Assembly: GCA_965199725.1 (NCBI GenBank) | Contig: OZ241321.1 | Coordinates: 1,433,359-1,497,358, forward strand | Direction: 5' to 3' | Length of the DNA: 64,000 nucleotides | DNA from: Methylophagaceae bacterium | Lineage (GTDB): Bacteria > Pseudomonadota > Gammaproteobacteria > Nitrosococcales > Methylophagaceae | Shown: in pieces, positions 5,299-50,204 of the stretch | Numbering within the stretch: position 1 is the stretch's first letter | Layout: each line of letters opens with the position of its first letter | Notes under the pieces: generated by a model | The model's database searches: none | Seen by the model: the letters and a program-made list of their open reading frames with translations, nothing else | Told to the model about the DNA's origin: nothing | Made by a program: the position numbers and the translations under genes

Positions 5299-6261
5299 AT
5301 GACAGTAACAATTGAGGTTGACAATTTAGCTAAACATTTTGGCGCGATTAAAGCCGTAGATGGCGTATCGTTTATTGCCAATAGAGGCGAAGTGCTTGGC
5401 TTTTTAGGGCCGAACGGTGCTGGCAAGTCAACTACCATGAAAATGATCACCGGCTTTTTAGCCCCAACCTATGGCACGGTAAGGGTGTGTGGGCATGATG
5501 TACTAACTGATCCTATCGCTGTTAAGGCAAGTTTGGGTTATTTACCAGAAGGGGCATCAGCTTATGCTGATATGACCCCTGACAATTTTCTTAAGTTTAT
5601 TGCTGATATTCGCGGCTTGTCTGGCAAAGCCAAACAACGCGCTGTTGATATAGCTGCTGAACGTGCGCGGATTATGCACGTTTGTTATCAGCCAATTGAT
5701 ACCTTATCAAAAGGCTACAAGCGTCGGGTAGGTCTGGCACAAGCTATTTTGCACGATCCGCCAGTCTTAATTATGGACGAGCCAACCGATGGTCTGGACC
5801 CTAACCAAAAACATGAAGTGCACACACTGATTAGTGAGATGGCGCAGGATAAGACGATTATTATCTCAACCCATATTCTGGAAGAAGTCCATGCCTTATG
5901 TCAGCGCAACGTGCTGATTGCAGAGGGTAAGATACAGTTTGATGGTGCTTCATACGAACTTGAAGCGATGTCACGCTATCATAATGCGGTATGTGTAGTA
6001 GTGGCTGATACCCAAGATGAGATGGCGTCATCATTTATCAAGACACTTGATTTTGTTGCTGACGTAGATGTAATGACCACTAGGCGAGGTTTGCGGGTAT
6101 ACCCACACGATAAAAAGCAGATAACTTTAGCGTTATCTCAGGCAATCCGTGATCGTGGCTGGCAGATTGATTCGCTATATGCTGAACAGGGACGTTTAGA
6201 TGAAGCGTTTCGGGCTATCACCATAACAAACTTAAATGGATTGTCCGATGAAGATGATTAA
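5299..6261 (+). CDS. ABC transporter ATP-binding protein (GldA-like)
   Basis: 320 aa. Walker A GPNGAGKSTT, LSKGYKRRVGLAQA signature, Walker B LIMDEPTDGLD. Confidence 0.85.
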   Translation: MTVTIEVDNLAKHFGAIKAVDGVSFIANRGEVLGFLGPNGAGKSTTMKMITGFLAPTYGTVRVCGHDVLTDPIAVKASLGYLPEGASAYADMTPDNFLKFIADIRGLSGKAKQRAVDIAAERARIMHVCYQPIDTLSKGYKRRVGLAQAILHDPPVLIMDEPTDGLDPNQKHEVHTLISEMAQDKTIIISTHILEEVHALCQRNVLIAEGKIQFDGASYELEAMSRYHNAVCVVVADTQDEMASSFIKTLDFVADVDVMTTRRGLRVYPHDKKQITLALSQAIRDRGWQIDSLYAEQGRLDEAFRAITITNLNGLSDEDD

Positions 6262-6988
6262 TATTTGGTTCATTATGAAGCGTGAGCTTGATGGTTATTT
6301 TGCTACGCCTATTGCCTATGTATTTATTATCATATTTTTATTATTGACTGGCTTTACCACCTTCTTTGTTGGTGATTTTTTTACTCGCAGAGAGGCTGAT
6401 CTATACCCATTTTTTTCTCTTCATCCATGGATATACATATTGTTAATTCCAGCTATTTCAATGCGCTTATGGTCAGAAGAGCGCAAAAGCGGCTCCATTG
6501 AGCTATTGATGACTTTGCCGATTTCGGTATTTGAAGCAGTCATTGGCAAGTTTTTGGCAGCATGGGCCTTTACTGGCTTAGCCTTAATGCTGAACTTTCC
6601 ATTGTGGTTGACGGTGAATTACTTAGGCGCACCTGATAACGGCGTTATTTTTACTGGATTTGTTGGTAGTTTTTTGATGGCAGGTGGTTTTTTGGCTATT
6701 GGTGCCTGCCTTTCGGCGCTGACCAAAAATCAGGTGATTGCCTTTGTATTAAGCCTGATTGTCAGTCTGGCTTTTGTATTGAGTGGCTATGGCATTGTGC
6801 TAGACTTTTTTAGTGGTTGGGCGCCTGCCGTATTAATTGAAGCGGTTAGCTCCTTTAGTTTTCTGACTCATTTTGACGCTATTTCTAAAGGGGTGATTGA
6901 TGTGCGTGATATTGCCTATTTTGTATCATTCATTATGTTGTGGTTGTTTGCTAATGCAGTGATTGTGCAGGTGTACAAAGCTGATTAA
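6236..6988 (+). CDS. ABC-2 type transporter permease (GldF-like)
   Basis: Polytopic ORF following the ATPase. The real start is probably an internal Met (6254 or 6275, ...MKRELDGYFATPIAYVF). Confidence 0.8.
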   Translation: MDCPMKMINIWFIMKRELDGYFATPIAYVFIIIFLLLTGFTTFFVGDFFTRREADLYPFFSLHPWIYILLIPAISMRLWSEERKSGSIELLMTLPISVFEAVIGKFLAAWAFTGLALMLNFPLWLTVNYLGAPDNGVIFTGFVGSFLMAGGFLAIGACLSALTKNQVIAFVLSLIVSLAFVLSGYGIVLDFFSGWAPAVLIEAVSSFSFLTHFDAISKGVIDVRDIAYFVSFIMLWLFANAVIVQVYKAD

Positions 6989-7000
6989 AGTGCAGGTTAA

Positions 7001-8911
7001 ATGAATAAACAGTTATTATCAACAACCGGATTAGTACTCGCTGTTATTTTGTTTATTGCGTTTAATGTGGTGGTAAACGGTAATTTTAAATCATTACGTG
7101 TTGATTTAACTGAAGATAATTTATACACCTTATCTCAAGGCTCACTGAATATTATTGCGGCGCTACCCGATATCATTACCTTACAACTTTATTATACTGA
7201 AAAGGTGGCGCAGGAGTTGCCTGGGTTAAAATCATATGGTCAAAGGGTGCAGGAACTCTTGGCAGAATATCAGCGTAGGTCCAATGGTAAAATCAGGGTG
7301 AAAATAATTAACCCTAAGCCTTTTTCTGATGATGAACATCGTGCTAGGCGCTATGGCTTGCAGGCGGTGCCTATTGACGGGAAAGCCCATCCGCTTTATT
7401 TTGGCTTGGCTGGTACCAATTTACTTGATGGCATAGATGTCATTGCTTTTTTTCAGCCAGAAAAGGAAGATGTGCTTGAGCATGACATCACCAAGCTGAT
7501 TTATAAGCTATCCAGCGCAGGCAGAAAATCAGTAGGCATATTGAGTGCATTGGCTATTGATGGTGATAATTACGATCCGATAAAAGGAGGGCTGTCCTCC
7601 TCAGCGGGTGGTAACGCACCCTGGGCGGTCATGGCTGAATTGCGCCAATTGTTTAATGTAACAACATTGCCAAATAATATCCATCGTATCCCATCATCTA
7701 TTGATGTACTCATCATCGTGCATCCTAAGCAGTTTGCCAAAAGTACGCTGTATGCTGTTGATCAATATGTGTTGGGCGGTGGCAAGTTGATTAGCTTTGT
7801 TGATCCTTATGCTGAAAGTGACGTACCAGAAAAAGATACCAATAATCCGATGGCAGCTGTGGTCTATTCCCGTAGCTCTAATATGCCTGATTTATTCAAG
7901 GCATGGGGGTTTGCCCGTGCCAGTGCCGATGTGGTTGCTGATCGTAAAACGGCAATTAAGGTAGATTTTGGTGCCAGAGTCAGTAATAAGCCGATTGATT
8001 ATGTGCTGTGGCAGTCGATTACTGATAATCAATTAAACAAACAACAGGCGGTGACCAGTCAGTTAAAAAGGATAGAAGTGGCGACACCAGGCTATTTTAG
8101 GCAACTTGAAGGGGCGACCACCACTTTAATTCCGTTAATTTCATCCAGCAATGAAGCCATGCTAGTTGATAAGCGTGTGGTGCAATTTCGCAATGATCCG
8201 TTGGCACTTTTGACTAAATATCAGTCAGGTACACTTAAGTATCCTATTGCTGTTCGGGTTACTGGCGTGGCTAAATCGGCTTTTCCTCAAGGGGTAAAAG
8301 ATCAGTTAGCACCCAAACATCTGGCCGAATCCAGTCAGGATATTGATGTGATTGCTATTGCTGATGTTGATATGTTGCAGGATAAATTCTGGGTACAGGT
8401 ACAAGATTTTTATGATCAGCAGATTACTTACAGCACGTCAAACAATGTTGATTTTTTGATCAATGCAATTGATGACATGTCTGGTGAAAAAAGCTTGATC
8501 AGTGTACGTTCTCGTGGCGGATTTTCTAGGCCATTTGATCGGGTTGTTGCCCTAGAGCGGCAGGCAGAAAAGCGTTACCGCACTCAGGAGCGTGCGTTGC
8601 AGAAAACGCTGGATGATGCCAAGCAGCGTATTGCCAGAATGCAGGCCGAGCGCAGCGGTAGCGGTGATAGATTGCTTAATGTTGAGCAGGAAAAGGAAAT
8701 TGCTGAGTTCAGGATAACAATTGATAAAACCACACAGCAATTACGCGAAGTTCAGGGAAATCTACGTAAAGACATTGATGCATTACATACCCAATTAAAA
8801 TTTTTTAATATTGGTCTAGTGCCAATAATAGTTGCATTGCTTGCCGTGTTCACTGGTTGGCTGCGTATTCGCAAGCGCACCAAAGGCCGCAAATTGCCGT
8901 CACGGGCTTAA
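7001..8911 (+). CDS. GldG-family ABC-transporter auxiliary protein
   Basis: 636 aa with an N-terminal and a C-terminal TM helix flanking a large soluble part. Third gene of a GldA/F/G-type operon. Confidence 0.7.
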   Translation: MNKQLLSTTGLVLAVILFIAFNVVVNGNFKSLRVDLTEDNLYTLSQGSLNIIAALPDIITLQLYYTEKVAQELPGLKSYGQRVQELLAEYQRRSNGKIRVKIINPKPFSDDEHRARRYGLQAVPIDGKAHPLYFGLAGTNLLDGIDVIAFFQPEKEDVLEHDITKLIYKLSSAGRKSVGILSALAIDGDNYDPIKGGLSSSAGGNAPWAVMAELRQLFNVTTLPNNIHRIPSSIDVLIIVHPKQFAKSTLYAVDQYVLGGGKLISFVDPYAESDVPEKDTNNPMAAVVYSRSSNMPDLFKAWGFARASADVVADRKTAIKVDFGARVSNKPIDYVLWQSITDNQLNKQQAVTSQLKRIEVATPGYFRQLEGATTTLIPLISSSNEAMLVDKRVVQFRNDPLALLTKYQSGTLKYPIAVRVTGVAKSAFPQGVKDQLAPKHLAESSQDIDVIAIADVDMLQDKFWVQVQDFYDQQITYSTSNNVDFLINAIDDMSGEKSLISVRSRGGFSRPFDRVVALERQAEKRYRTQERALQKTLDDAKQRIARMQAERSGSGDRLLNVEQEKEIAEFRITIDKTTQQLREVQGNLRKDIDALHTQLKFFNIGLVPIIVALLAVFTGWLRIRKRTKGRKLPSRA

Positions 8912-10027
8912 ATGACGATGAAAAAAATAAATAGTTTAACTGTTTTGCTAATGATTACTATGGTGATGGTTGTGCTCATGCTAGTAACTATTCAAAAGCC
9001 TGAGACTGCCGATAAAAATACAGGCTTATTGTTTCCTGATTTATTAGCGCAGTTAAATAAGGTTGATACAGTTTATTTTAAAAGTTCACAGAATGAATTT
9101 ACCTTGATTAAAAAGGGAGAAGACTGGTTTGTTAAGGAGCATTGGGGGTATCCGGCTGACTTTAATCTGGTCAAGCGTACCTTGATTGATATTGCTGAAA
9201 CCAAAGTCTTAGAGCGCAAAACTAGCAACCTTGACCAGTATGCAGTGCTTGGCGTTGAAGGTGCGGCAGAAGGCGGCGCATCACTGCAAATTATTATGGC
9301 AGAAGGTAACGGGCACATAGCCGGCTTGTTACTAGGTAATGAACGCGAGATCAGTCAGCAAATCGGCGTGCGTCAGTTTTATGTGCGCAAAAGTGATTCA
9401 GAGCAGGCGTGGCTGGCAGAAGGGTATCTTAATATCAATCGGGTAATGCTAGGCTGGATTGATAGTAATGTGGTTGATATTGCCCGTGAACGCATTGCCA
9501 AAGTCAATATTACTCAGCCTAACGGTGATACAGCAACGATTATCAATCTCGGACAAAAAGATGCTTTTGGCACGCCTGTTATGCGCGATAAAACTGTCTT
9601 TAAGTATCAGCAGTTAGGCTATGATATTGCTGGTACTGTATTTCAGTTAACACTGGAGAATGTGCAGCCTGTTAATCAGTTTTCTCGTGGTGATGCTGAA
9701 GTGGTCATTGCTGAGTTTATTACCTTTGATGGCCTTAAGATCATCACTAATACCTCATTTAATGATGGCCACTATTATACTACTTTACGCGCTGAAAGTG
9801 ACACATCAATGATGGCTGATGTGCCGCCTGATATTCAAAAATTGGATGTGCTGAAAACACTAGAAGGGGTAGCGCAAGAAATAGTTAGTATCAATCAGAG
9901 GCTAGGTGATTGGGTTTATCAGGTGGGCGGCTTTGTTGGTACTAATATGATGCGTGCTAAAAGTGATATTGTCACCAGCAAAGAGAATACTATTCCTATG
10001 CCGCCTGATCTGACTGGTACCCAATAA
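8912..10027 (+). CDS. DUF4340-like protein (fourth gene of the GldAFG-type operon)
   Basis: 371 aa. Signal-anchor N-terminus, and the start abuts the previous stop. This position is usually occupied by DUF4340 proteins. Confidence 0.55.
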   Translation: MTMKKINSLTVLLMITMVMVVLMLVTIQKPETADKNTGLLFPDLLAQLNKVDTVYFKSSQNEFTLIKKGEDWFVKEHWGYPADFNLVKRTLIDIAETKVLERKTSNLDQYAVLGVEGAAEGGASLQIIMAEGNGHIAGLLLGNEREISQQIGVRQFYVRKSDSEQAWLAEGYLNINRVMLGWIDSNVVDIARERIAKVNITQPNGDTATIINLGQKDAFGTPVMRDKTVFKYQQLGYDIAGTVFQLTLENVQPVNQFSRGDAEVVIAEFITFDGLKIITNTSFNDGHYYTTLRAESDTSMMADVPPDIQKLDVLKTLEGVAQEIVSINQRLGDWVYQVGGFVGTNMMRAKSDIVTSKENTIPMPPDLTGTQ

Positions 10028-10064
10028 GTATAATCATCAACAAAGCTCATTTTAATAATTTTCT

Positions 10065-10232
10065 GTTGTAGTTTCCTCTCTCACCCCGAAAGGGTATAAT
10101 CCATGGCGCTATTTAACATGATTCTTTATGGTTGTAGTTTCCTCTCTCACCCCGAAAGGGTATAATCAAATGCGCACGACCAATGCCAGTGTACTCGTTG
10201 TAGTTTCCTCTCTCACCCCGAAAGGGTATAAT
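10065..10232 (+). CRISPR. CRISPR array with 3 identical 36-nt repeats and 2 spacers of 30 nt (type II-C style)
   Basis: Repeat GTTGTAGTTTCCTCTCTCACCCCGAAAGGGTATAAT at 10065-10100, 10131-10166 and 10197-10232. Spacers at 10101-10130 and 10167-10196. Strand assigned from the GTTGTAG...TATAAT orientation shared with Neisseria-type II-C repeats. Confidence 0.95.
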
Positions 10233-10245
10233 AGGCTCTCATTAA

Positions 10246-10292
10246 CCCTCTGAATTTTATGTAAAACATAAAGTTTAGGGGGTTTAATTTTT
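10246..10292 (+). terminator. intrinsic terminator closing the plus-strand CRISPR transcript
   Basis: 16-bp stem (10246-10261 / 10267-10282, 5-nt loop) followed by TTTAATTTTT. Three stem positions are G-U wobbles only in the plus-strand RNA. Confidence 0.6.
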
Positions 10293-10295
10293 AGT

Positions 10296-10628
10296 TTAAA
10301 ACAGCAATATTTGATCACTGGTTACTCGCTTTTCCTGAAAACTTAAGTTTCCTACCAGCAGTTTCATATTCGCAAATTGCTTCTCTGAAACCTCCAAACA
10401 ACGGATTGATCCTTCACTGGGCAGGTTGTATTTTAATCGTTGTAAATGTTTTTTAGCATCTTCACCGTTATTGGTAATACGGCTGTATACTGACCACTGG
10501 AGCATATCGTAGCCATCTTTGAGCAGAAAGCGGCGGAACACCGTGTATGCCTTTTTTCTAGCTTTAGTGGTAGTTGGCAGGTCAAAAAATACAATTAACC
10601 GCATAAAACGTCGTGTCTCCTTACTCAT
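10296..10628 (-). CDS. cas2: CRISPR-associated endoribonuclease Cas2
   Basis: 110 aa. [10 protein letters not shown]...[20 protein letters not shown] matches type II Cas2. Overlaps cas1 by 8 nt. Confidence 0.9.
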
Positions 10629-11562
10629 GATAATCGGTTAATTCAAATCTGACTTGACGTGATGAGTGAGCAGCCAGCCATAGCATTTTATTTTTGGGCG
10701 ATTCACAGGCAACGGCAAAGTTCTGTACAGCCATTTCAATATTGGCTAACACCGTGCCAGTATCAGTATTTTGGTTGTTGCCAATATCCTCACCCAAAAA
10801 GCGGACCAATAGGGCTTTGTCTTTACTAGTCAGACTACGTTTGGGTTCTTTGGCGAAATGGCGATACACCCAGTGATCAAAAAGCGGACGGTAAGGCTCT
10901 ATTAAGTCATCAGCCAGATTAAAGGCATTTTGCTCATTGTGATGAAATAAGCCAATAGCTGGATGTAAGCCAGACCCACTAACCTGCCGGGCAATACAGG
11001 CCCTGATGATGGCATAGCCATAGTTTAACGCAGCATTAAACAGACTGTCTTCACGGCGTTTTAGTGTTGTGTGCTTCAGTAATGAACTAAAATATGCCCG
11101 TGCTGCCTGTGCTTCGCAATTATCAGGGTCGCCAGAGCGCACTTTGCCTGCCAGTCTATCCAACTGCTTGACTGCTATACTATGATGACAACGGCGCAGA
11201 GTTTCAGTCTGATTAATAATTTTCTGGCGTACAATCTGCTGATGCCAGCGTTTGGTTACTGGGCGTGATAGGGCCAGCTGGGCACGCAAACGGCGCAGAC
11301 CGCGATGGTATTGCAAGTATGGCATGAAAATACCGCTGGGCAAATGCTGTTTATCCACCACCAGTACTGCAATGCCTTCTTCAGCTAATGTGCACAACAA
11401 GGGCTGGCTGACTGTGATTTGTGGGTTATCTAGCACCAGCGCACTGATGTCTTCCACGGGGATATGAGCGGTCTGTTGTTCGTTGCTTAAGCTGATGCAA
11501 AACTGGTTATGCTTTAGTGATAAATAGGCTGGCTGTGTCACTACCACACTGCGCCAACCCAT
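10621..11562 (-). CDS. cas1: CRISPR-associated endonuclease Cas1 (type II)
   Basis: 313 aa. MGWRSVVV..., [31 protein letters not shown] and [13 protein letters not shown] align by eye with Neisseria Cas1. Starts 2 nt after the cas9 stop. Confidence 0.95.
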
Positions 11563-11564
11563 AG

Positions 11565-14500
11565 TTAAATAGTTTGCCCTTTGCGAAGTGGCTGGCGTTG
11601 TTCGGGCTTGGCTTTGTATAAGTTTCCTAATATATCCACATGGTATTTTTGCAATTGGGCGGTTTTGATACCAAGACTTCGGTGTAAGCCAGGATTTTTA
11701 ATCTCATTTTCTGATTTGTTCTTATCAGTGCCTTTTTGGGGATTGCGGTCGTGTTCATAAATATTAATTTTACCACCTGCAATATCAAAAGTTTGATAAT
11801 AGCCAGCAATCGTTTGCTTGTTTGATTTGGTGAGTTTTACCCAATCATTTTTATGGAGACTAAATAAAAATTGGTAACTTTCATCCATTATCTTACGACT
11901 GGGTTCTGCTTTCTTGGGTAGGGTATCCCTCACTCTATATGATACATAGATTGGCACACCATAATGCTTGCCTTTGTTATCTTGAAATACATCTAAACGA
12001 ATCATGCTATCCTTATTGGCAATACCACTGCGCACGGGAATGCCATTTTTACCTTCTTTTTTATTAAGCAATTTAACGTGATGTATAGGCGGGCCTTGCT
12101 TGTCCTTTTTGCCTGCCGGCATATACAGGGTAGACTCCTTTAATTGCTGTTGATCTAACAGGTCATGATTGCGGCTTTGTTGTTTTTTGAGTGCGTCAGA
12201 TTTGTCTTGAGAAGGTTTTGATTTTCCCGATGATGAGCTAGATTTTAAGTCATCCCATTCCGCTTTATGTTGTTTCTTAAGGTCTTCTTTTTCTTGCTTG
12301 TGCTTGGCGTCTCTGTTAGCTTTATTAGTCAACCATTTTTCAAGCGCCTGCCTCAAACCTTGATTGCGTTTGTCGTTAATGCCCGCAATATTATCTATAT
12401 CGTTTAGTTTTAGTTTGTCTATGGGTGTTTTGAGTGCTGAGTAATAAACAGGCAGTCCCTTATCGTTAATTAGTTGGTGAACATCAGACACTGTCACTCT
12501 GGCGCGAATAGTTTCTTGATGAGCTGCACCTAATTTGCGTCGGCTAAGCGCGCGCGAAACTCGCACTTGTTCTAATCTTGTCAGCACATCATTGCGAAAG
12601 TTATCCCAAGGACGAGGAAAGTAATTGTCCAGTTGCCGCAAGCGGGCTATATCAAAAATCTCCCCAGTTTCGGTGTCGCTGTAGTTGTTTCGCACACACT
12701 TTAATTCATCCCTTTTGGAATATTCGGCGATACGCTTAATCATGCTACGGTTGGTGGCAGCAATTACCGCAGCGTCCATCGCGTGGTGTAAATCACCATC
12801 TGAGCGGTTTTTATTAAAGCCCCAGCGGGTGCGCATTAGACCAGTCACACCACCGCTTAATACGACACAGCGATCCTGCTTGCCATCTGGTTTTTCTCCT
12901 GCCCAGATGATGTTTTGCTCAATCATCTCTTTGAGAACACGGCCCACATATTGGGTGTCTTTCAGGTTACGTTCGCTAAAGTCTTTTGATCCTTCACCAA
13001 AATCTTTGCATAAATAACGCCAGCGTTTGGCTTGACGAATTTTAGGGTTACTTTTAACCCAGTTTTCAAAATTGTGCCAGCGTTCGGATTGTTCATCTTT
13101 GCCCATATACTCAAATGGGGTATGGTTACCTTTATTTTGGTTTTCATGGATGAGCACCAGCGCTTTATTGTTTTGGCTGTTATCATAGCTGCGGCTGTAG
13201 GGCAGGATATGATCGACTTGCACATAGCCTGTCTCGGGCAGACGCTTTAAGTCAATGGCTTTTTGGCTATAAGCACACTTACCATCTTGCTCACGATACA
13301 GACGATATTTTGATAGATCATCTTTTTGTGGTGCTGTGTTAAAGTGCTCTTGGTATTTTTGAATAGCCTCGTCTTTTTGCTGGCGAAACTCTTTTTGACC
13401 TTGTTCAATTTCTTTGCGTTCTTTGTAAGGCTTGTTTAACTCGCGCCCCATTTCAATATGTATGGCAGCAGGCTTGCCATATTCTTTAATAATGGCATTG
13501 ATAAGCTTACGCGCTTGATTGAGCGAACGCAAGACTACTGGGTTACGAATTTGGTTTTTATCAGGTGCGGGAATCTTGCCCGTTTTGTTGCGGTTTTGTG
13601 GTTTAACTGAGTGGTGATAACCCGTCTCTTGGCAAGCCTTATCATAAGTCAAGCCTTGTTTTTCCATAAAAGGTAGGATTTTATGCAATACTTTCAGCGA
13701 TAGATGATGATAGGTACTAAACTCACAGTCTAGCACTGCTTCAATTACTTCAGCTTCAATACCTGCTTCTTGTAGCTGTTCTTTGATGCTACTGTCATCA
13801 CGATAAGTGGTGAGCACCTTACCAATAGTATCTAATCGTTCACGGTTTTGCTTATCTTGCTGCCATTGCGGTTCAAGCTCTGCTTCTTTATAGGCTTTAC
13901 GCAAGGTATGGAAGGCTTTGGCTTCAAAAATTTTGCCGTCTTCTGCCTTTTTAGTATCCTCTTTGGTGAGTTCGTATCGTGTGTTGTGATTTTCGTCTTT
14001 TTTCTTAGTTTTGCTGTAACTTACTAGATTACATTGGTATTGTTCATTGAGTCCCAGATGTTTTTTGATTTGAGTAAAATTGACACTGGCTTGCTCAAAT
14101 GGCAGAATTTTGTAGCTGCCGTTTTTCATCTAAGGTCAGCGGTCGCCTTTCACCGGTCAAGCCAATTTTCATATTATTGAGCTTATCGTACCAGATAAAC
14201 CGTTCAGCACTGTGACAAGCTTTAGCTGCGCGATATTCACTCGGTTCAAAGGTACACTTACCTACCATTTGCGCGATTTGATCGCCGGCAAAAGTCGGCC
14301 GGCGCGCCATGAGTAATTTATCTACTGCACTTAAGAATTGAGCACTCGTATGTCGATTACATTGCTCACGCTGGTGCTCAAACAGTCGTTTCAGTTCAGT
14401 TTGCAAATCAGCGCGGTCAACTGTATTGCGGTAGCTACCGCCCTTATTGCGTTTAGCCTCATAAAAGTCATCATCTTTATAAAACATCTCGCCAATGGTG

Positions 14501-14973
14501 CGATAGTTTTTAGCTTCCATTTTTTTCTTATTAGTGCTCACGCCGCTAAGCATCTTGCCAATATCTTTATCTTTGAGCTCACTTTTGCGGTTAGATTGAA
14601 AGCCGCGGTGCTTCACAATGTGGTATAGCACCGTAGCCCATTCTTTTTTGTCCAGCAGACGATCCAAGCCTTCACTTCTGAGTTGCCAAGGGGATATGTT
14701 CAGTCTAAAGGCATCAGGCTTAGCATGATCAATTAAACCTTCGCGTTTTAACAATCGGCATAGTCTTAACAGCCGATGTGCGCGGCGGCGCAAGCGACGG
14801 CGTGATGAACGTGCTTCGCGGCGGATGAGATTAAGCGACTCGCCATCTTTGGCATTTTCCGCCTTATCAAAGGTGCGAACGTGTAAGCCAAGTATTTTAT
14901 TATCAGTTAGCAATGCAGCCCCTACTGAGGCAATGCCAAGATCAAGACCGAGCGTATAATTTTTTTCTTGCAT
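11565..14973 (-). pseudogene. cas9: type II-C Cas9, interrupted by one frameshift (ORFs 14973-14095 and 14129-11565)
   Basis: N-terminal ORF has RuvC-I (LGLDLGIASVG) and an Arg-rich bridge helix. The second ORF has IHIEMGRE, HNH (VDHILPYS...NNKALV...NQNKGN), RuvC-III (DLHHAMDA) and a C-terminal domain with Nme-like islands (IRLDVF...VPIY). The two ORFs overlap by 35 nt in different frames. Confidence 0.9.
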
Positions 14974-14996
14974 GATGCGTTTAATTCCTGTATACT
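14968..14996 (+). promoter_or_regulatory. candidate sigma70 promoter of the tracrRNA
   Basis: TTGCAT (14968-14973, overlapping the complement of the cas9 ATG), a 17-nt spacer, then TATACT (14991-14996). The anti-repeat begins about 15 nt downstream. Confidence 0.45.
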
Positions 14997-15002
14997 AAGC
15001 TT

Positions 15003-15130
15003 TAAGTGCTTATTATACACTTTCGGGGTGAGAGCCGTTACTACAATAAGGAAAGCATCTTTATGATGCTGCACCGAATCCGCCCGAACCGCTGTTTCAG
15101 GTTGTCCCTGCTGCATGTTCGGGCTTTTTT
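15003..15130 (+). ncRNA. tracrRNA
   Basis: Anti-repeat at 15012-15047 equals the repeat complement at 29/36 positions, with a central 5-nt mismatch block. It is followed by AAGG, a perfect 6-bp hairpin at 15054-15070 and a GCCCGAAC/GTTCGGGC stem plus T6 (15082-15130). The 5' end is inferred only from the promoter. Confidence 0.85.
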
Positions 15131-37965: not shown

Positions 37966-39801
37966 ATGGATAGTTTGCTTGATCAGATTAACAGTCCTGA
38001 TGACTTAAGGCAGCTTGATAAAAAGCAATTGCCGCAACTGGCTGAAGAAATACGCATGCTAATTATTGACAGTGTGCAACAGACTGGTGGTCATATAGCA
38101 TCAAATCTTGGTGTTGTTGAGCTTACACTGGCGCTACATTATGTATTCGACACCCCTAATGATCGTCTTATCTGGGATGTAGGTCACCAGAGTTACGCCC
38201 ATAAAATTATTACTGGTCGCCGCGATAGTATGAGTACCATGCGTCAATTTGGGGGGTTATCTGGTTTTCCCAAGCGTAGTGAGAGCGAGTATGATGCTTT
38301 CGGCGTTGGTCATTCAAGCACATCAATTAGTGCGGCATTAGGCATGGCTATTGTTGCCCAGATTAATGATAATACGCGCCGTGCTGTTGCGGTTATTGGC
38401 GATGGTGCGCTTACTGCTGGTCAAGCCTATGAAGCATTGGATCATGCTGGTGATTTGCGCACTAATTTGCTGGTTATTCTTAATGATAACGAAATGTCCA
38501 TTTCTAAAAATGTTGGTGGTATGTCAAATTATCTGGCCCGTCTGCTTTCTGGCAAAGTCTATACTTCGGCGCGTGAAGGCAGCAAACGGGTTTTGGAAAA
38601 GATTCCTTCTGCATGGGAGTTTGTTCGTCGTACTGAAGAGCATGTCAAAGGTATGGTTATTCCCGGTACATTATTTGAGGAAATGGGCTTCAATTATATT
38701 GGTCCGATTGATGGGCATGATCTTGATACGTTGATTGCCACGCTTATCAACCTGCGCAAACAAAAAGGACCGCAGTTTTTGCATGTTGTCACCAAAAAAG
38801 GCAAAGGTTACCAGCCAGCGGAACAGCAACCATGCCAGTATCATGGTGTTAGCCCTGCAGGTAGTGCTTCACCTGCCTTAAGTTACACTCAGGTGTTTAG
38901 TGACTGGCTATGTGACATGGCAAAAGAGTCGCAAGCGCTAATTGGTATTACGCCAGCGATGGCTGATGGATCGGGGTTAAACGCATTTGCTAAAGACTAC
39001 CCTGAACGCTATTTTGATGTTGGTATTGCTGAGCAACATGCTGTTACTTTGGCTGCAGGTATGGCTTGTGAAGACAAAAAACCAGTTGTTGCCATTTACT
39101 CTACTTTTCTGCAACGTGGTTATGATCAACTTATCCATGATGTTGCCTTGCAGAATCTACCAGTTTTATTTGCTATTGATCGCGGTGGGCTTGTGGGTGC
39201 TGATGGTGCGACCCATGCAGGTAGTTTTGATCTAAGTTATCTACGCTGTATTCCTAATATAGTCATTATGACACCTGCTGATGAGAATGAGTGTCGGCAA
39301 ATGTTAACAACGGGGTATCAATATCACGGCCCGAGTGCCGTACGTTATCCTCGCGGCGCGGGTGCTGGTGTGGTAGTGCAACCAGCATTAACTGCGCTAC
39401 CTGTTGGTAGAGCAGAGGTAAAGAGGCGCGGTGAAAAGACGGCAATACTGGCGTTTGGCTCTATGTTGACATCATCGCTTGAGGCTGCCGAAAAACTGCA
39501 TGCAACGGTTGTTAACATGCGTTTTGTTAAGCCTTTGGACGAAAAGTGCATTGCAGAGATAGCCGGCAGCCATGAGTTGATCGTAACGATTGAAGAAAAT
39601 GCTGTTCTAGGTGGTGCTGGCAGTGGCGTTAATGAATATCTGCATACCATTGGTAATAGTGCATCAGTGATTAATCTTGGCTTGCCTGATAAATTTCTTG
39701 ACCATGGCAAACAACAACATTTGCTTGGTCTGTGTGATCTTAATGCAGCAGGCATAATCAATGCTGTCAACAGCCATTTTTCTATAGTTGATCAACATTG
39801 A
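37966..39801 (+). CDS. dxs: 1-deoxy-D-xylulose-5-phosphate synthase
   Basis: 611 aa. [25 protein letters not shown] and GDGALTAG motifs. Confidence 0.92.
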
Positions 39802-48922: not shown

Positions 48923-49454
48923 ATGAAAAATTTACTTTTGGTTTTATTTACTTATAATTTAGTGTTAGCAGCTGTATCAGTTGCCTTTGCTGACGATCAT
49001 ACTGATAATCGAAATGCGCTAACTGATGTTATCGTAGTTGGCAGTAAGACCGGTACTAACCGTCAGGATTTAGCTACCAGCGTTGGCTATTTTGGCCATG
49101 AACGCCTTGAGGTGGAGCCCATAGTCAACATTGATGATGTGTTTACCCGATCTGCTAATGTCAGTTTGGGTACTGCATCGAATGCACTGGCTTCTATATT
49201 GGTCGATCAGGTTGCTATGGGGGTTAATTAAGGATTTGCAGACATTGCTTTAAGCGGATCAACGTTGGATTTGGCAACAAGGTGGCTGGCAATCGCTTGT
49301 GCCACCACAGCAACTGGCGCGTAAGCAGATTGGTAGCCATATAATTGACAGCGTTAATATTAATGTGTCAGGTGATGATAGTCTTGCTAACAGCTACTTT
49401 TTTGATGCTGAATCCGGTTTTGAGCGCAGCGTTAAGGATAATAGTATACGTTGA
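48923..49454 (+). pseudogene. TonB-dependent receptor remnant (signal peptide plus plug start, then scrambled frames)
   Basis: A 102-aa ORF with a signal peptide and the TonB-box-like TDVIVVGSK ends prematurely. Only about 0.5 kb remains where about 2 kb is expected, and a later frame reads ...INVSGDDSLANSYFFDAESGFERS... Confidence 0.55.
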
Positions 49455-49522
49455 CAGGTTTAACTTAAATAAATAGCTATTACTGATCTTAAGTTTAAGG
49501 TGACGTAATAGCAAGCTTTTTA

Positions 49523-50204
49523 ATGTTAGCTAGAGAGCACATGAACAAAATTTTTAATAATATACTGAAAAGTATTTTTCTGTTATTAGGCCTGCTTATT
49601 GTGTGGCGGTCGCCGGTTAATGGTTGGAGTTCGTTGGTTTGGTTGGCAGGCACTATTATTATGACTGTTATCCGCAAACCTCATATAGAGACCAATACTA
49701 AGAATATTATTGCTCAATCGTATCAAACTACAACCGAAAAACTGTTTGGTTATGGTGTTTGTTGGCTCTCTATTATTACCGCTATTGTAACTTAGTTTTG
49801 GGTTGTTAGGTTTTGCCAATTATGGGTTGCCAATGTAGGCTAATGTAGTGGGCGTAATGGTGCTTATGATTGGGCTATGGCTTTTTACCGTAGTCATCTT
49901 GATCTTGGTCGCAACTAGAGCGTCATGCTTGAAATTCGCAAGGGACATTATTTAGTTAACTCAGGGGTCTATAAACGTATCCGTCATCCTATGTATGCCG
50001 CTATCTTTCTTATTTTTGCTGCTCAAATGCTATTGATTCAAAATTATATTGCCGGCTCGGGCGGTATTCTCACCTTTGCACTGATGTACATCATACGCAT
50101 ACCCAAAGAGGAAGCCAATTATGCGGGCACGTTTTAGTGAAGAATATGCTATCTATTGTCGCCGCACTGGTAGAATCTTGCCGAGGCTTATTGCTTATGA
50201 TTGA
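49523..50204 (+). pseudogene. isoprenylcysteine carboxyl methyltransferase (ICMT/Ste14) family gene with multiple disruptions
   Basis: Family motif LVNSGVYKRIRHPMY...PKEE and tail FSEEYAIYCRRTGRILP are recoverable only by switching frames. In-frame TAG codons at 49793, 49836 and 49916; frame changes near 49790, 49882-49886 (T5) and about 50111-50125. Confidence 0.7.

Follow-up and report, generated by a model that had tools for sequence, protein, structure and literature searches.

The closest described relatives of the system reported here belong to type II-C of the CRISPR-Cas9 systems. They include Nme1Cas9 of Neisseria meningitidis (PDB 6JDQ), Nme2Cas9 with its N4CC protospacer-adjacent motif (PAM; PDB 6JE3), and HpaCas9 of Haemophilus parainfluenzae (PDB 8HNT/8HNW; PMC10400994). 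In the N. meningitidis system, promoters are embedded in the repeats and the CRISPR RNAs (crRNAs) are RNase III-independent (review PMC5965381). We analysed a 64,000-nt stretch of contig OZ241321.1 from a Methylophagaceae bacterium (the window, whose numbering is used throughout). On the chromosome of this marine gammaproteobacterium, a relative of Methylophaga, we observed a type II-C CRISPR-Cas9 locus built on the Neisseria/Pasteurellaceae design. The effector gene, cas9, is not an uninterrupted open reading frame (ORF) as recorded. As the whole explanation, the identity of the locus included, we favour with modest confidence a real and very recent inactivation of a system that is intact in all other respects.

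That the locus is a CRISPR-Cas system of type II-C is practically certain, and chance is untenable as the origin of the features listed below. The cas9, cas1 and cas2 genes were assigned with NCBIfam profiles, far over the curated cut-offs. The two recorded cas9 ORFs matched TIGR01865 at profile positions 1-315 and 315-1070 (252 and 474 bits; cut-off 100). The operon runs cas9-cas1-cas2 on the minus strand, with a 2-nt gap between cas9 and cas1 and an 8-nt overlap between cas1 and cas2. NCBIfam and Pfam scans of the flanking ORFs returned no csn2, cas4, integrase or transposase. A DUF4340/GldG-like ABC-transporter operon ends 37 nt before the first repeat, and a glutamine amidotransferase gene begins 56 nt past the terminator of the trans-activating crRNA (tracrRNA). 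Because these unrelated genes bound the module so closely, neither a fourth cas gene nor an integrase or transposase gene would fit. An earlier note, made from the sequence alone, had described the tight packing, the II-C gene content (cas1 as TIGR03639 and cas2 as TIGR01573 in our scans), flanks free of integrase and transposase, and three identical 36-nt repeats with two 30-nt spacers, all of which we found as it described them. Its word "complete" for the module was too strong, as cas9 in its recorded form is a pseudogene: a one-base insertion at 14106-14111 divides it into two ORFs. The features of the locus are as follows.

10065-10232, plus strand: CRISPR array, three identical 36-nt repeats and two spacers of 30 nt, convergent with the cas operon
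10065-10100, 10131-10166 and 10197-10232, plus strand: the repeats (GTTGTAGTTTCCTCTCTCACCCCGAAAGGGTATAAT), identical, at 66-nt spacing
10101-10130, plus strand: spacer 1 (CCATGGCGCTATTTAACATGATTCTTTATG), with no credible match
10167-10196, plus strand: spacer 2 (CAAATGCGCACGACCAATGCCAGTGTACTC), whose mRNA sense encodes K-C-A-R-P-M-P-V-Y-S, the C-terminal motif of gokushovirus (Microviridae) VP1
10244-10284, no strand assigned: long hairpin that separates the last repeat from the cas2 stop, a terminator-like site in the scan
10296-10628, minus strand: cas2, 110 aa, intact (TIGR01573, 82 bits, profile positions 1-96 of 96)
10621-11562, minus strand: cas1, 313 aa, type II (NMENI) class, intact (TIGR03639, 278 bits, profile positions 1-277 of 278)
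11565-14973, minus strand: cas9, 3409 nt, recorded as two ORFs, 14095-14973 (292 aa) and 11565-14129 (854 aa)
14106-14111, minus strand: frameshift site, reading CTACAAAATTCTGCC where homologs have Q-L-Q-N-L-P-F-E, with one extra base in the A4 or TT run
14968-14996, plus strand: candidate tracrRNA promoter, TTGCAT-17 nt-TATACT, overlapping the cas9 start codon
15004-15130, plus strand: tracrRNA gene with a putative 5' end, divergent from cas9
15012-15047, plus strand: anti-repeat, pairing with the repeat
15054-15070, plus strand: hairpin after AAGG, 6 bp (15054-15059 with 15065-15070)
15082-15124, plus strand: terminator stem, an 8-bp outer stem (15082-15089 with 15117-15124) and an inner stem, followed by T6 at 15125-15130

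At the frameshift site, minus-strand positions 14111-14106 read AAAATT. The first cas9 frame runs to …RQLQN and then reads SAI-stop, and the second frame resumes at LPFEQASV…; in the alignment, the homologs carry QLQNLPFE unbroken. The break falls at position 315 of the TIGR01865 profile. Deletion of any one of positions 14106, 14107, 14108 or 14111 regained a single ORF in register with the homologs. The repaired Cas9 obtained by this in silico removal of one base has 1135 aa, approximately the 1,140 aa that the earlier note had given for the joined frames. The proline at the break (P291) was invariant in 40 homologs, and L-P-F was present in all six homologs of the frameshift-site alignment. 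A one-base insertion here would end translation after 292 residues. The catalytic residues were in invariant columns of the 40-sequence alignment (RuvC D11, E507, H729/H730 and D733; HNH H588 and N611).

We are moderately confident that the frameshift is real rather than an assembly error. A real mutation is favoured because the apparent error rate of the window is low, real pseudogenes lie nearby, the array is minimal and the homopolymers are short. Split ORFs were surveyed by ORF adjacency and overlap across the 64-kb window, not by comparing each ORF with family profiles. The window was 89% coding, and the cas9 halves were the only adjacent ORF pair on the same strand that overlapped in this manner. 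The general sequence quality of the window looks good. The only other clearly broken region was a stretch of gene wreckage at 48923-50200 (plus strand). There, a 102-aa ORF resembled the N-terminal plug of a TonB-dependent receptor and then stopped (no Pfam match). An ICMT-family methyltransferase gene (PF04140) was broken twice, by an in-frame TAG where a Trp is conserved (~49914) and by a frameshift close to 50130. Together with the truncated receptor-like ORF, this multi-lesion pseudogene (49.5-50.2 kb) shows that genes do decay in this genome.

Several observations weigh against a recent inactivation. The locus has one lesion only, and the catalytic residues, cas1, cas2, the tracrRNA and the three identical repeats are intact, a state that a functional locus hit by an assembly error would show equally well. 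Short homopolymers (A4/T2) hold the insertion, and removing one base puts the ORF exactly in the register of the homologs. The source contig is 1.5 Mb long and may thus come from a long-read assembly. No second assembly of the organism for comparison was found in the protein collection, the GTDB representatives or the JGI metagenomes. The exact 854-aa ORF was present in the protein collection on one 1.5-Mb contig, the GTDB species-representative genomes returned only relatives at <=37% identity, and the exact repeat was absent from the JGI metagenomes. Two further points stand against the overall account: the promoter in the repeat lacks the TG of an extended -10, has a poor -35 and was unlisted by a consensus scan, and the PAM rests on a single protospacer family with a coding-constrained flank. 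If the frameshift were a sequencing or assembly artefact, the locus would encode an intact Cas9 of 1135 aa, and with its small array it would be a fully functional II-C system. We regard this as possible rather than probable. No comparable split ORF pair occurred elsewhere in the window, so that the per-base error rate looks low; true pseudogenes are close by, and runs of A4 and T2 are shorter than the homopolymers usually behind indel errors.

It is quite improbable that the locus is an old, decaying relic that has long been silent. The tiny array, the broken effector gene and the gene decay elsewhere in the window would fit such a history. Long decay would bring more lesions, degenerate repeats and drift between repeat and anti-repeat, whereas the repeat copies do not differ, 31 of 36 pairs persist in the duplex, neither cas1 nor cas2 is truncated and no catalytic residue has been lost.

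We consider it very unlikely that the insertion is real and the system works nonetheless. In one version, a +1 ribosomal shift at AUU-UGA would recode the message and give a full-length protein with the conserved L-P-F turned into S-A-I. In the other, the 292-aa product (RuvC-I, the bridge helix and the first part of the recognition (REC) lobe) and the 854-aa remainder would reassemble on the crRNA:tracrRNA guide as a split Cas9. In favour are that split Cas9 enzymes can be engineered to work, that an ATG at 14129 opens the second ORF, which shares 35 nt with the first, and that a shift at the stop codon would leave the length of the protein unchanged. Against this, AUU-UGA is not preceded by a Shine-Dalgarno-like stimulator, and the internal ATG has no convincing ribosome-binding site in front of it. 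The shift would also sacrifice L-P-F, a conserved motif with P291 invariant, and 39 of 39 aligned homologs were single full-length proteins of ~1055-1161 aa, none of them split. If the system did work despite the insertion, the subclade formed by this Cas9 and its nearest relative (P0002, below) might read a PAM unlike that of Nme1, Nme2 or Hpa. Because the frameshift lies in runs of only A4 and T2, we rejected phase variation and transcriptional slippage there.

Recent, real inactivation of an otherwise intact system remains our preferred account. We compared the repaired Cas9 with characterised orthologs. Among solved structures, the best sequence match was HpaCas9 (E = 7.6e-189, 633 bits), and Nme1Cas9 matched end to end (E = 2e-183, 615 bits). 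Identity was 34% to each, in line with the expectation of the earlier note that the protein would not be nearly identical to a characterised ortholog. An AlphaFold model of the repaired protein (mean predicted local distance difference test (pLDDT) score 76.9) had Nme1Cas9 as its best structural match (E = 1.5e-64, template modelling score 0.63-0.66). HpaCas9, Nme1/Nme2Cas9, ThermoCas9 and GeoCas9 were the top matches in sequence and fold; the II-A enzymes SaCas9 of Staphylococcus aureus, St1Cas9 of Streptococcus thermophilus and SpCas9 of Streptococcus pyogenes scored far lower. By these sequence and fold scores, the Cas9 groups with the Nme/Hpa/Geo-type II-C enzymes and not with II-A or II-B. 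The earlier note had seen "only motif islands" in common with NmeCas9; the end-to-end homology and the structural match show this to be an understatement, and the divergence that it saw in the PAM-interacting region is borne out.

Two insertions mark this region. Across 40 homologs, one was common only to the window Cas9 and P0002, which have 71 and 60 residues, respectively, where the others have 18-21. It adds ~50 aa (residues ~884-947) just upstream of the PAM-interacting domain and is predicted to form a helical hairpin of helices 884-914 and 922-947 (pLDDT mostly 84-91). The second is a loop within the PAM-interacting domain, with 21 residues in the window Cas9 and 19 in P0002, compared to 10 in most others; it is 9-11 aa longer than in the 38 other relatives. 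With a divergent PAM-interacting region and two insertions, a PAM cannot be transferred from the known orthologs. A separate 14-aa K/E-rich insertion (residues ~320-335) lies at a REC-lobe loop. The same loop is enlarged in another relative (P0003, residues ~330-450) by an insertion of >100 aa made of tandem TETSQNEIETETAEK copies. Insertions appear to be favoured at this loop.

The array is read on the plus strand, towards cas2, judging from its complementarity to the tracrRNA and a sub-threshold match to Rfam CRISPR-DR34 on that strand; it ends 63 nt from the cas2 stop. Every repeat copy ends in a perfect TATAAT (its last six bases). This -10 has no TG extension, the -35 matches at 3 of 6 positions, and the candidate promoter was not listed by the consensus scan. 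Among the relatives with arrays, a TAnnnT hexamer was kept at the 3' end of every repeat variant (TATAAT, TACACT or TACAAT). By analogy with N. meningitidis, crRNAs are likely to be initiated inside the repeats. The long hairpin at 10244-10284 had a folding energy of -24.5 kcal/mol (z = -5.7), and none of 200 shuffled sequences folded as well. It probably terminates transcription in both directions, for the array and for the cas operon alike. The window array has 3 repeats (2 spacers), compared to 5, 25, 28 and 44 repeats in the four relatives with arrays.

The tracrRNA gene has the layout that the earlier note likened to Neisseria-type tracrRNAs, namely AAGG, a 6-bp hairpin, an 8-bp stem and T6, and its core is conserved in five relatives. 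The note had also placed the anti-repeat correctly, with 29 of 36 positions matching and a central block of five mismatches. We counted 30 Watson-Crick pairs and 1 G-U pair among the 36 positions; the mismatches were the internal block, mismatched at 4 of its 5 positions, and one isolated position. The repeat:anti-repeat duplex had a predicted energy of -44.7 kcal/mol, compared to -13.2 +/- 2.6 kcal/mol for shuffled anti-repeats. No Rfam family matched the tracrRNA. The candidate promoter scored 8/12, under the scan threshold; in the relatives, TAATAT, TATAAT or TATATT stands just upstream of the anti-repeat. We also observed that complementarity between the last repeat and the tracrRNA region (10198-10239 with 15005-15046) runs 7 nt past the repeat into the trailer, for 42 nt at 83%. 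These 7 nt reach the predicted 5' end of the tracrRNA, and the extension may be due to chance.

We retrieved five related loci (L001 and L028-L031) via their Cas9 proteins. The core GGGGTGAGAGCCGTTACTACAATAAGG, followed by a hairpin and a terminator, was in the same place and on the same strand in all five. In the first (nexus) hairpin, 5 of 6 pairs covaried across the six sequences (the window and the five relatives). The 5' half of the anti-repeat shifted in step with the repeat of its own locus in 4/4 relatives with an array. No array was found in L028, the source of P0003, where the contig ends shortly after cas2.

The nearest relative among 5.8 billion proteins was P0002 (1138 aa), the Cas9 of L001 (ENA ERZ25067862, ctg40324). 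In the alignment it was 62% identical to the window Cas9, and BLASTP, covering the C-terminal 854 aa, put the identity at 58%; the others reached at most ~58% in the alignment and ~50% by BLASTP. The two loci share both lineage-specific Cas9 insertions and the core and position of the tracrRNA. In contrast to the window, L001 has an intact cas9 and 44 repeats. The 3' half of its repeat also differs (…CTCCGAATTGCTACACT), with an anti-repeat altered to match, as do its chromosomal neighbours and its cas1, whose 5' end is duplicated around a 1.8-kb insert. In this duplication (L001 13406-15576), the first ~350 nt of cas1 recur at 90-92% identity between cas9 and the full-length cas1; the insert contains, on the opposite strand, a 267-aa ORF that matched no family.

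The earlier note had left the targets open, which no longer holds in full. By BLAST, spacer 2 was traced to the gokushovirus major capsid gene, and it clearly derives, on sequence similarity, from the C-terminal end of that gene. All 18 GenBank phage matches were to Microviridae, at the same site and strand (best 26/29, E = 0.01), and every listed phage record carried a major-capsid (VP1) annotation under the match. The mismatches fell mostly at third codon positions. A pattern of spacer 2 with N at wobble positions matched 15 IMG/VR contigs, all of 4.2-4.7 kb (best 27/30). A search of 7.3 Gb of plasmids, used as a noise control, gave only scattered noise. IMG/VR contained no exact match to spacer 2. 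Spacer 2 is in the sense of the capsid mRNA. Its crRNA would find its complement in one strand of the double-stranded replicative form only, and not in the packaged single strand.

Spacer 1 gave only chance-level BLAST matches among phages and plasmids. An exact search, and a wobble-degenerate pattern of its only open frame (MALFNMILY), returned nothing in IMG/VR or metagenomes. A 16-nt exact core (25/30 overall) in Dulem virus 62 (PP511609.1, 3499-3528) was rejected as probably due to chance (E = 8). Dulem virus 62, from lemur saliva, is an inovirus with a gene for a Neisseria TspB-like protein, and the core falls in an intergenic region. Neither spacer matched elsewhere in the window.

On their 3' side, the spacer-2-like protospacers are flanked by N-G-T-N-C-C-N-G-G, with CC at positions 5-6. 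This CC is not evidence for a PAM because it belongs to a proline codon that is conserved regardless and comes from one protospacer family. The array of the sister locus L001, searched against phages by BLAST to borrow a PAM, gave no usable match.

The cas region differed little from its surroundings in composition (G+C 42.4%, compared to 41.6% for the window), and the composition profile showed no step. Given this, and flanks without mobile-element genes, recent arrival on a mobile element was rejected. Flanking ORFs belonged to the families of ABC-transporter substrate-binding proteins, DUF4340, glutamine amidotransferases and aldo-keto reductases (NCBIfam/Pfam). Directly upstream of the array, at 5299-10027 (plus strand), is a four-gene operon resembling the gliding-motility ABC transporter GldA/GldF/GldG together with a DUF4340 protein. 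All its matches were well under the equivalog cut-offs, and it is probably a related ABC exporter rather than a true Gld system. The Dxs protein of the window (37966-39801, plus strand) was 76-82% identical to proteins of Methylophaga, Methylophagaceae and Piscirickettsiaceae genomes and metagenome-assembled genomes. The window's own Dxs was absent among the database matches (best 82%), although the exact 854-aa Cas9 fragment was present in the same collection; the source genome seems to be represented there only in part.

On the N. meningitidis paradigm, crRNAs would start inside each spacer from the repeat-borne TATAAT -10 box, or would arise by transcription through the array. Each crRNA would pair, by its repeat portion, with the tracrRNA, transcribed divergently from cas9. 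Cas9 carrying this duplex would cut double-stranded DNA beside a PAM, and Cas1 with Cas2 would add new spacers. The system's last recorded use was against a gokushovirus. To our knowledge, gokushoviruses are abundant marine single-stranded DNA phages with very few known hosts. Spacer 2 provides a CRISPR-based link from a marine Methylophaga-like gammaproteobacterium to these phages. If the frameshift is real, a cas9 with a single lesion in a pristine locus may show a defence system caught at the moment of its loss.

Overall, the locus adds one more divergent II-C Cas9 with a fully predictable guide RNA and two unusual insertions near the PAM-reading region. It leaves the understanding of type II-C systems unchanged, and Cas9 orthologs at such a distance are plentiful in metagenomes. 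Alignment with the PAM-interacting domain of HpaCas9 starts at residue 974 and reaches the end (77 bits), whereas HpaCas9 is shorter (1055 aa compared to 1135 aa, at 34% identity) and, relative to the window protein, has an 11-residue gap in the PAM-interacting-domain loop and a ~60-residue gap before the domain. The protospacer CC at positions 5-6 is compatible with the N4CC PAM of Nme2Cas9; the PAM-interacting domain of Nme2Cas9, however, matches less well (37 bits) than those of Hpa and Nme1.

The N. meningitidis system is alike in its cas9-cas1-cas2 content without a fourth gene. It is also alike in a tracrRNA upstream of and divergent from cas9, and in an array downstream of cas2 that is read towards the operon. 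Its 36-nt repeat likewise starts with GTTGTAG and ends in a -10-like hexamer, its spacers are 30 nt long, and its anti-repeat has an internal mismatch block followed by ACAAUAAGG and a hairpin. The weak, sub-threshold match of the window repeat to Rfam CRISPR-DR34 is to a Neisseria-type family. The window repeat lacks the TG of the extended -10 that we take to be present in the Nme repeat. Further differences are the 34% identity of the window Cas9, its frameshift and ~50-aa helical-hairpin insertion, and the tight spacing of the tracrRNA and cas9, which leaves no room for a small CRISPR-associated RNA (scaRNA) gene. In its architecture the locus is textbook II-C, and it is a divergent member of a well-known family.

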